From NCBI RefSeq assembly GCF_003334385.1, contig NZ_QOWN01000002.1: DNA of 64,000 bases; one strand, 5' to 3'. This DNA comes from Escherichia coli. Lineage in GTDB: Bacteria; Pseudomonadota; Gammaproteobacteria; Enterobacterales; Enterobacteriaceae. This document shows, one piece after another, positions 56,989 to 57,359 of this stretch; within the stretch, counting starts at the first letter, position 1; each line of letters opens with the position of its first letter. Below the pieces are notes generated by a model, which made no database searches, was not told where the DNA came from, and worked only from the letters and a program-made list of their open reading frames with translations. Position numbers and translations under genes: made by a program.

Positions 56989-57159
56989 TTATTCTACCTT
57001 TTCGGCTGTCTCTTCTCTCGTACTGTTTAAGTATTTGTTCCGCGCTTCAAGCAGTGCGTCTCTGTCCTGGCGAAACGCCCGACAATAACGTTTCAAATGC
57101 AGGAAATAACCCACCACAACCAGAGCAATCAATACAATCCAGTACCAGGCGATAAACAT
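56989..57159 (-). CDS. Putative small single-TM membrane protein (56 aa from second Met)
   Basis: ORF 56989..57183. The second Met is preceded by aaggg at SD distance. Hydrophobic helix FIAWYWIVLIALVVVGYFL then a charged tail. Bracketed by hairpins on both sides. Confidence 0.4.
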   Translation of the reverse strand: MFIAWYWIVLIALVVVGYFLHLKRYCRAFRQDRDALLEARNKYLNSTREETAEKVE

Positions 57160-57359
57160 CCTTTTACCCTTAATATTTAACAATACTAAACATTTAGCGT
57201 ATAAATTTCACATATCCTTTTTCGGATATATTCATATGGTCGCATAATAACGGAACAATTATATGATTTTGATCATAATGAAAAAGAATGCCTGATATTA
57301 ATGAAATTTTCTCATAGAAAGAGAAGCGGAATTAACATCTTGCATAGCAGGGAAAAATA

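Follow-up and report, generated by a model that had tools for sequence, protein, structure and literature searches.

AcrZ, MgtS, MgrB and MntS are characterised small regulators of Escherichia coli that pass through the membrane once. YqiD, the protein considered here, resembles them in having fewer than 60 residues and one transmembrane (TM) helix, was found through the same tagging and ribosome-profiling approaches (PMC6001520), and presumably acts as they do, by binding a larger membrane protein. It has no sequence similarity to any of the four, and, unlike in them, its conserved part is a cytoplasmic juxtamembrane helix and not the TM segment alone.

The DNA examined, which I will refer to as the window, is a stretch of 64,000 nt from a genome of E. 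coli (assembly GCF_003334385.1, contig NZ_QOWN01000002.1). A preliminary description of it, made from the letters, had called attention to a small minus-strand ORF between zupT and ribB and had left open whether the ORF was annotated. It is. The ORF is very probably yqiD (b4756), with the gene model given in Table 1: RefSeq places at exactly those bounds, by way of a 100%-identical genome, a 171-nt CDS named yqiD ("protein YqiD", WP_000469266.1), and it annotates the CDS in thousands of E. coli genomes. The YqiD of the window is identical at 56 of 56 residues to WP_000469266.1 and to the sequence in Table 1 of PMC6001520. The window strain is an E. coli with the common yqiD allele, and the gene is the same as yqiD of K-12, where the zupT and ribB flanks and the layout of strands are also identical, yqiD facing zupT tail to tail and sharing its strand with ribB. 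The gene order in the 100%-identical genome is ygiC, ygiD, zupT (+), yqiD (-), ribB (-), an FMN riboswitch (-) and ubiK. When positions 56900-57420 (521 nt) were compared by megablast with 5,426 complete E. coli genomes, the region was found in 4,829 of them, at a coverage of at least 80% in 4,424, and in a single copy (a median of one place per genome). The features lying beneath the match were "yqiD: protein YqiD" and "zupT".

What was found is a real gene, yet a rediscovery, already known from the work of VanOrsdel et al. (2018; PMC6001520). Their Table 1, of detected small proteins, gives yqiD 56 aa, the flanks zupT and ribB, and K-12 coordinates of NC_000913.3 3183381-3183551. YqiD appears there as an unidentified positive of a tetracycline ribosome-profiling screen, and it was seen by immunoblot after chromosomal SPA tagging. 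The preliminary description had proposed a translation signal as one check on the ORF, and both methods supply it. The tagged protein accumulates in LB cultures during normal, unstressed growth, and the same study places it in the SP group, most members of which are present at high levels (PMC6001520). The literature searched held no experiment on a phenotype, a partner or the localisation of YqiD. Matches to the name yqiD that referred to an unrelated gene of Bacillus subtilis (a homolog of ispA) were discarded, as was the "yqiD" of PMC5525287, apparently a typographical error for YqjD.

A further gene from the literature, Orf3334 of EAEC 042 (CBG36162.1), a hypothetical gene of the 'DUF4051 family', is probably an ortholog of yqiD. 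It is among only 3 of 23 tested genes whose expression was higher in a mutant of aar, the AraC negative regulator (PMC5570504).

Table 1. Positions in the window of yqiD, of the elements around it and of additional Rfam matches.
Feature	Position	Strand	Basis
zupT (zinc transporter), convergent neighbour	56158..56931	+	annotation; tblastn at orthologous loci
yqiD intrinsic terminator, stem 56971-56941 and T-rich tail 56940-56931	56931..56971	-	terminator scan
yqiD coding sequence, 56 aa and stop	56989..57159	-	RefSeq CDS, identity to PMC6001520, dN/dS, conserved N-terminus MFIAWYW
Shine-Dalgarno AAGGG	57167..57171	-	sequence read; AAGGGT nearly invariant in 30-species alignment
conserved promoter and 5' leader block, about 118-125 nt	57160..57277	-	alignment across 30 species
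small candidate hairpin ATATCC GAAAAA GGATAT	57212..57229	-	in MFE fold
ribB intrinsic terminator, 13 pairs then TTTTTATTTTT	57359..57390	-	terminator scan; separates ribB from yqiD
remaining Rfam matches in the window	13200-13276, 24246-24316, 30097-30160		Rfam gathering threshold

Coding was assessed by pairwise comparison (Nei-Gojobori, NG86) of gap-free codons 1-42 at nine orthologous loci. The values of dN lay between 0.03 and 0.30, those of dS exceeded 1 or went beyond the Jukes-Cantor limit, and ω, where defined, was about 0.02-0.25. In codons 23-42, E. coli and C. freundii show 11 synonymous differences and 0 non-synonymous ones. Purifying selection on the coding sequence is strong. 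As the low dN/dS holds across Escherichia, Salmonella and Citrobacter, the other check proposed at the outset also comes out in favour of the gene. The ORF might have been a chance one in a noncoding intergenic spacer, being short, AT-rich and without a confident Pfam or NCBIfam family, but that idea is refuted, and left with virtually no probability, by a dN/dS far below 1 at saturated dS, by a frame that is intact at 38 loci in several genera, and by the protein seen on the immunoblot (PMC6001520). A related matter is where the protein begins. The frame of the window strain runs on the minus strand from a TTG at 57183 to 56989 (64 aa, MLNIKGKRMFIAWYWIVLIALVVVGYFLHLKRYCRAFRQDRDALLEARNKYLNSTREETAEKVE), just as the preliminary description had it, and the helix and tail quoted there match exactly. 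From its range of 56 to 64 aa, the lower figure (from the ATG at 57159) holds and the upper (from the TTG) does not. That the open frame reaches the TTG is the one point in favour of a 64-aa protein, which is nevertheless extremely unlikely: stops fall between the TTG-equivalent position and the ATG in the variant allele of E. coli, in S. enterica, C. rodentium, C. amalonaticus and others; the Shine-Dalgarno sequence lies within the extension; and the 56-aa start is the one used by RefSeq and PMC6001520. Since most orthologs have in-frame stops 8-10 codons or fewer upstream of the ATG, the TTG is no conserved start. The N-terminus M[FY]I[AS]W is common to all full-length orthologs, and the plausible Shine-Dalgarno sequence that had been noticed before the second Met is in place, ending 7 nt before the ATG (minus strand, TTAAGGGTAAAAGGATG).

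A consensus terminator scan was run over positions 56800-57500, where shuffled sequences lead one to expect 0.6 ± 0.8 sites. It found two terminator-like sites, both on the minus strand. One is placed between the convergent stop codons of yqiD and zupT, and it has the composition of a Rho-independent terminator: a 13-bp stem with 6 GC pairs, a 5-nt loop and then AUGUUGUUUU (the stem-loop reads CAGAAGTTGTCCA TGCGC TGGACAACTTCTG, then ATGTTGTTTT on the minus strand). The hairpin reported earlier at this place is therefore real, though a base pair longer in the stem than the 12 bp it had been given. Wherever the yqiD-zupT gap of an ortholog is 57 nt or longer, a strong hairpin occupies it, though not one of the same sequence, and compensatory changes distinguish the stems of the two E. 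coli alleles. That the hairpin is kept while its sequence is not argues for a functional terminator. The second site is the terminator of ribB, which had rightly been recognised upstream of the ORF, with its 13 pairs and run of T; the stop codon of ribB is at 57423-57421 (-). Given the terminators on both sides, the conservation of the upstream DNA, the variability of the upstream neighbour, and an active reporter (these last three described below), yqiD is monocistronic, a transcription unit of its own between two intrinsic terminators. The small independent unit for a membrane protein that had been surmised is thus the one in which RefSeq annotates yqiD and which PMC6001520 lists.

A match to the Rfam family of the enterobacterial sRNA STnc240 at 57352-57422 (-) spans the stop codon and the terminator of ribB. 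At 29.1 bits (E 0.029) it is below the gathering threshold of 55, and it could be a 3'-UTR-derived fragment or a simple resemblance between terminators. At gathering thresholds, the scan of the whole window picked up known elements: the sRNA ES173, a pair of naRNA4/CssrE elements (REP-derived) and, ahead of ribB at 58178-58326 (-), the FMN riboswitch, which scored 120.9 bits.

Upstream of yqiD, the promoter and leader block can be aligned in 30 species, at distances where synonymous sites are already saturated. Its 5' edge, at 57277-57262 (-), reads TATGAT-CAAA-ATCATA, and ATGATC...TCAT is invariant in 32 of 32 orthologs, including the two most distant, which have a different spacer. This element can be read in two ways. 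It may be a good -10 hexamer, and a promoter scan gives -35 TTAATA and -10 TATGAT at a spacing of 18 nt, ending at 57272; or it may be an inverted repeat whose core, TGA-N6-TCA, is CRP/FNR-like and encloses a Dam GATC site. The homology between the two yqiD alleles of E. coli ends just 5' of TATGAT and resumes at the stop codon of zupT, limits that would mark the bounds of the functional unit. The upstream region is active in a GFP reporter fusion, and natural variants within it alter expression, with GWAS, promoter model and reporter in agreement (bioRxiv 10.1101/2025.06.10.658842). Several known binding sites were compared by eye and rejected. FNR (TTGAT-N4-ATCAA) and CRP (TGTGA-N6-TCACA) each fit at 8 of 10 positions, which is too poor; ArcA direct repeats fit only at a spacing of 10 bp, not 11; and NikR half-sites have the wrong spacing. 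Inspection of the conserved leader by eye gave no Zur box, only the half-site-like AAATGTT.

Structure in the leader RNA was also considered. RNAalifold, applied to 30 orthologous leaders, gave essentially no consensus structure (-0.65 kcal/mol), for which reason a conserved riboswitch or thermometer was no longer considered. The fold of the single sequence is unremarkable (z = -1.6), and a search of Rfam on both strands, at E up to 10, gave nothing meaningful over yqiD or its leader. The small hairpin at 57229-57212 shows weak covariation, with 73% of cells paired and 16 double-change cells as against 3.0 in shuffles.

The AT-rich segment of the leader that precedes the Shine-Dalgarno sequence, 57160-57208 (-), can be written TTTTAACG[CT]TAAATGTTTA.T.ATGTTAAAT. 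It is nearly invariant in Escherichia, Salmonella and Citrobacter, is absent from the two most distant orthologs, and holds direct repeats (GTTAAAT/TGTTTA/TGTTAA) spaced by about 10 bp. Its conservation in sequence but not in structure suggests a candidate binding site for a protein or an sRNA.

The protein itself begins with a hydrophobic segment, residues 2-20 (FIAWYWIVLIALVVVGYFL), with a mean Kyte-Doolittle hydropathy of 2.43 over the 19 residues. AlphaFold2 predicts a single continuous helix of residues 2-55 with moderate confidence (mean pLDDT 73; the pTM of 0.34 is meaningless for a lone helix). By hydropathy and this model, YqiD belongs with the small single-pass proteins, those with one TM helix in fewer than about 60 aa. 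One or two residues precede the TM segment, and five Lys or Arg (K23, R24, R27, R30 and R33) are found in the eleven that follow it, the net charge of residues 22-34 being +3. By the positive-inside rule this asymmetry of charge points to a single-pass membrane protein with its N-terminus out and its C-terminus in. The basic juxtamembrane stretch, KRYCRAFRQDRDALLEARNK, is highly conserved, nearly invariant. In 20 orthologs the invariant residues include W5, Y6, W7, Y18, H21, K23, R24, A28, R30, D32, R33, D34, A35 and L36, and the C-terminal 12-15 residues are free to vary. Within the core clade His21 does not vary and Cys26 hardly does, and Citrobacter and Salmonella have Cys20 in addition. 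What the distant homologs retain is the TM segment and the core RA[FY]RQ[DE]R[DE]A. His21 is gone from them, and some (P0114, P0116, P0117) have Cys26 shifted or missing.

Database comparisons connect YqiD to little else. No significant family or defence system was found for it in PADLOC, PHROGs or NCBIfam, where the match to NF038143 (18 bits against a cut-off of 50) is weak and probably compositional, and a sequence search of the PDB gave no solved structure, nor any complex, that contains a relative. The Pfam family DUF2621 (PF11084) matched residues 2-51, a TM segment and then a charged helix (i-Evalue 8e-4), but its model has 139 positions, of which only 8-57 were matched, at a marginal 19.8 bits. 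The match is probably compositional and YqiD no member. Several Citrobacter and Salmonella orthologs bear the source name 'DUF4051 domain-containing protein', and YqiD of K-12 once carried the DUF4051 label in some sources; the Pfam-A scan of E. coli YqiD gave no match to DUF4051, a model possibly gone from the library used. Protein searches found 108 relatives, all short, those with names coming from Escherichia, Citrobacter and Salmonella, and an exhaustive profile search reached, at E < 1e-3, no more than 25 of 1.84 billion representative clusters. The YqiD family is tiny and found only in Enterobacteriaceae.

The neighbourhood of yqiD was examined at orthologous loci by tblastn. In 34 of 34 the gene zupT is directly downstream and convergent, -1 to 77 nt away. 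Of four loci of distant homologs, three have this arrangement too and one is a 1.8-kb contig without a match to zupT, so that yqiD and zupT are tail to tail at 37 of the 38 loci examined. This linkage is the one lead to a function. The upstream side is different. About half of the 34 loci have ribB within 1 kb (165-982 nt); in the others with listed genes, the upstream neighbours are either a fimbrial operon or a cluster whose Pfam domains mark it as arylsulfotransferase, DsbA and DsbB (assT-dsbL-dsbI-like). With its upstream gene varying in this way (ribB, assT-dsbL-dsbI-like, fimbrial), the spacer between yqiD and ribB looks like a hotspot of insertion.

Some of the variation lies within E. 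coli, which has two deeply diverged alleles of yqiD. The variant (WP_001296421.1), found in about 396 genomes, has 60-80% nucleotide identity to the common allele, and its dS against that allele is about 2, as large as against Salmonella. In a comparison of window positions 56932-57277 with E. coli ETEC4071 (NZ_CP122673.1 711364-711534), the divergence begins exactly at the stop codon of zupT, and the zupT beside the variant allele encodes the same protein (the same RefSeq accession). ETEC4071 has a fimbrial operon of four genes between yqiD and ribB (L043 6809-11783), encoding a fimbrial-like protein, an usher, a chaperone and a pilus assembly protein. The window strain instead has ygiL and a pseudogene for a fimbrial usher after ubiK, from about 58400 onward.

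Two rearrangements touch the gene. In E. coli DLI.6n (L003 1788-2645) an IS1A is present between zupT and yqiD and the 3' end of yqiD has been removed, leaving a 150-nt ORF that is annotated as hypothetical. A Logan contig from SRR31245077 (L038 1499-2027) encodes a protein of 125 aa (P0123) in which a YqiD homolog, reduced to its C-terminal two thirds, is fused behind residues 1-72 of ZupT; beyond it, encoded on the other strand, come residues 215-257 of ZupT. An inversion with one end inside zupT and the other inside yqiD would leave such a pattern, as would a chimeric assembly; it was seen on a single 2-kb contig.

How YqiD works may be sketched by analogy with other small bacterial membrane proteins, which work in a like manner. 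Residues 2-21 would form one TM helix in the inner membrane, with the one or two N-terminal residues on the periplasmic side and, according to the positive-inside rule, the C-terminal 35 or so residues in the cytoplasm. The nearly invariant juxtamembrane helix would then be the working surface, most likely one by which YqiD would bind a larger protein on the cytoplasmic side of the membrane and modulate it, and ZupT would be the only candidate for such a partner that the genomic context offers. A membrane-anchored modulator acting through its conserved cytoplasmic helix is the model with most support, yet a tentative one, more likely wrong than right in its present form.

Two more specific readings may be set beside that of the modulator. 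If YqiD assisted or regulated the zinc importer ZupT as its partner, or responded to zinc by way of His21 and Cys26 at the membrane interface, the persistent tail-to-tail arrangement would be explained, and it would fit as well that zupT stays put in all 34 orthologous and three of four distant loci as the upstream neighbour changes repeatedly, and that Cys26 and His21 are kept in the core clade, with Cys20 added in Citrobacter and Salmonella. On the other hand, yqiD and zupT are convergent and have no common promoter, and retention of gene order by neutral processes is adequate to account for a linkage between convergent genes with so small a spacer, which may simply have been inherited. The candidate metal ligands fail in the distant homologs, the leader offers no Zur box to the eye, and the literature searched makes no experimental connection. 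Such a link to ZupT is unlikely, and it is distinctly unlikely that YqiD serves ZupT alone, as partner or regulator, and has its expression governed through the ATGATC-N4-TCAT inverted repeat at the 5' edge of the unit. The remaining reading, a hydrophobic peptide like a type I toxin, held down through its long conserved 5' leader by antisense or structural repression, draws on the small size, the single TM helix and the AT-rich conserved leader of about 100 nt, and in another strain, E. coli ETEC4071, the annotation has Ibs type I toxin genes close by. It is very unlikely, however, for the tagged protein is readily seen in normally growing LB cultures (PMC6001520), more than half of YqiD is a conserved, polar tail in the cytoplasm, which sets it apart from Ibs, Ldr, Hok and TisB, the locus has no Rfam match to an antitoxin or sRNA, RNAalifold shows no conserved leader structure, and the gene is single copy. 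The overlapping or adjacent antisense RNA and tight translational repression that define a type I toxin-antitoxin system are not seen at yqiD.

As a discovery yqiD matters little, having been annotated, named and validated by experiment before. The value that is left lies in three observations: the strong constraint on the protein, above all on its cytoplasmic RAFRQDRDALL helix, the presence of zupT as neighbour at nearly every locus, and the promoter and leader block with its invariant inverted repeat. These narrow the experiments by which a function might be assigned to an orphan small membrane protein of E. coli, and if the reading that involves ZupT were true, it would give this uncharacterised small protein a role in metal homeostasis.
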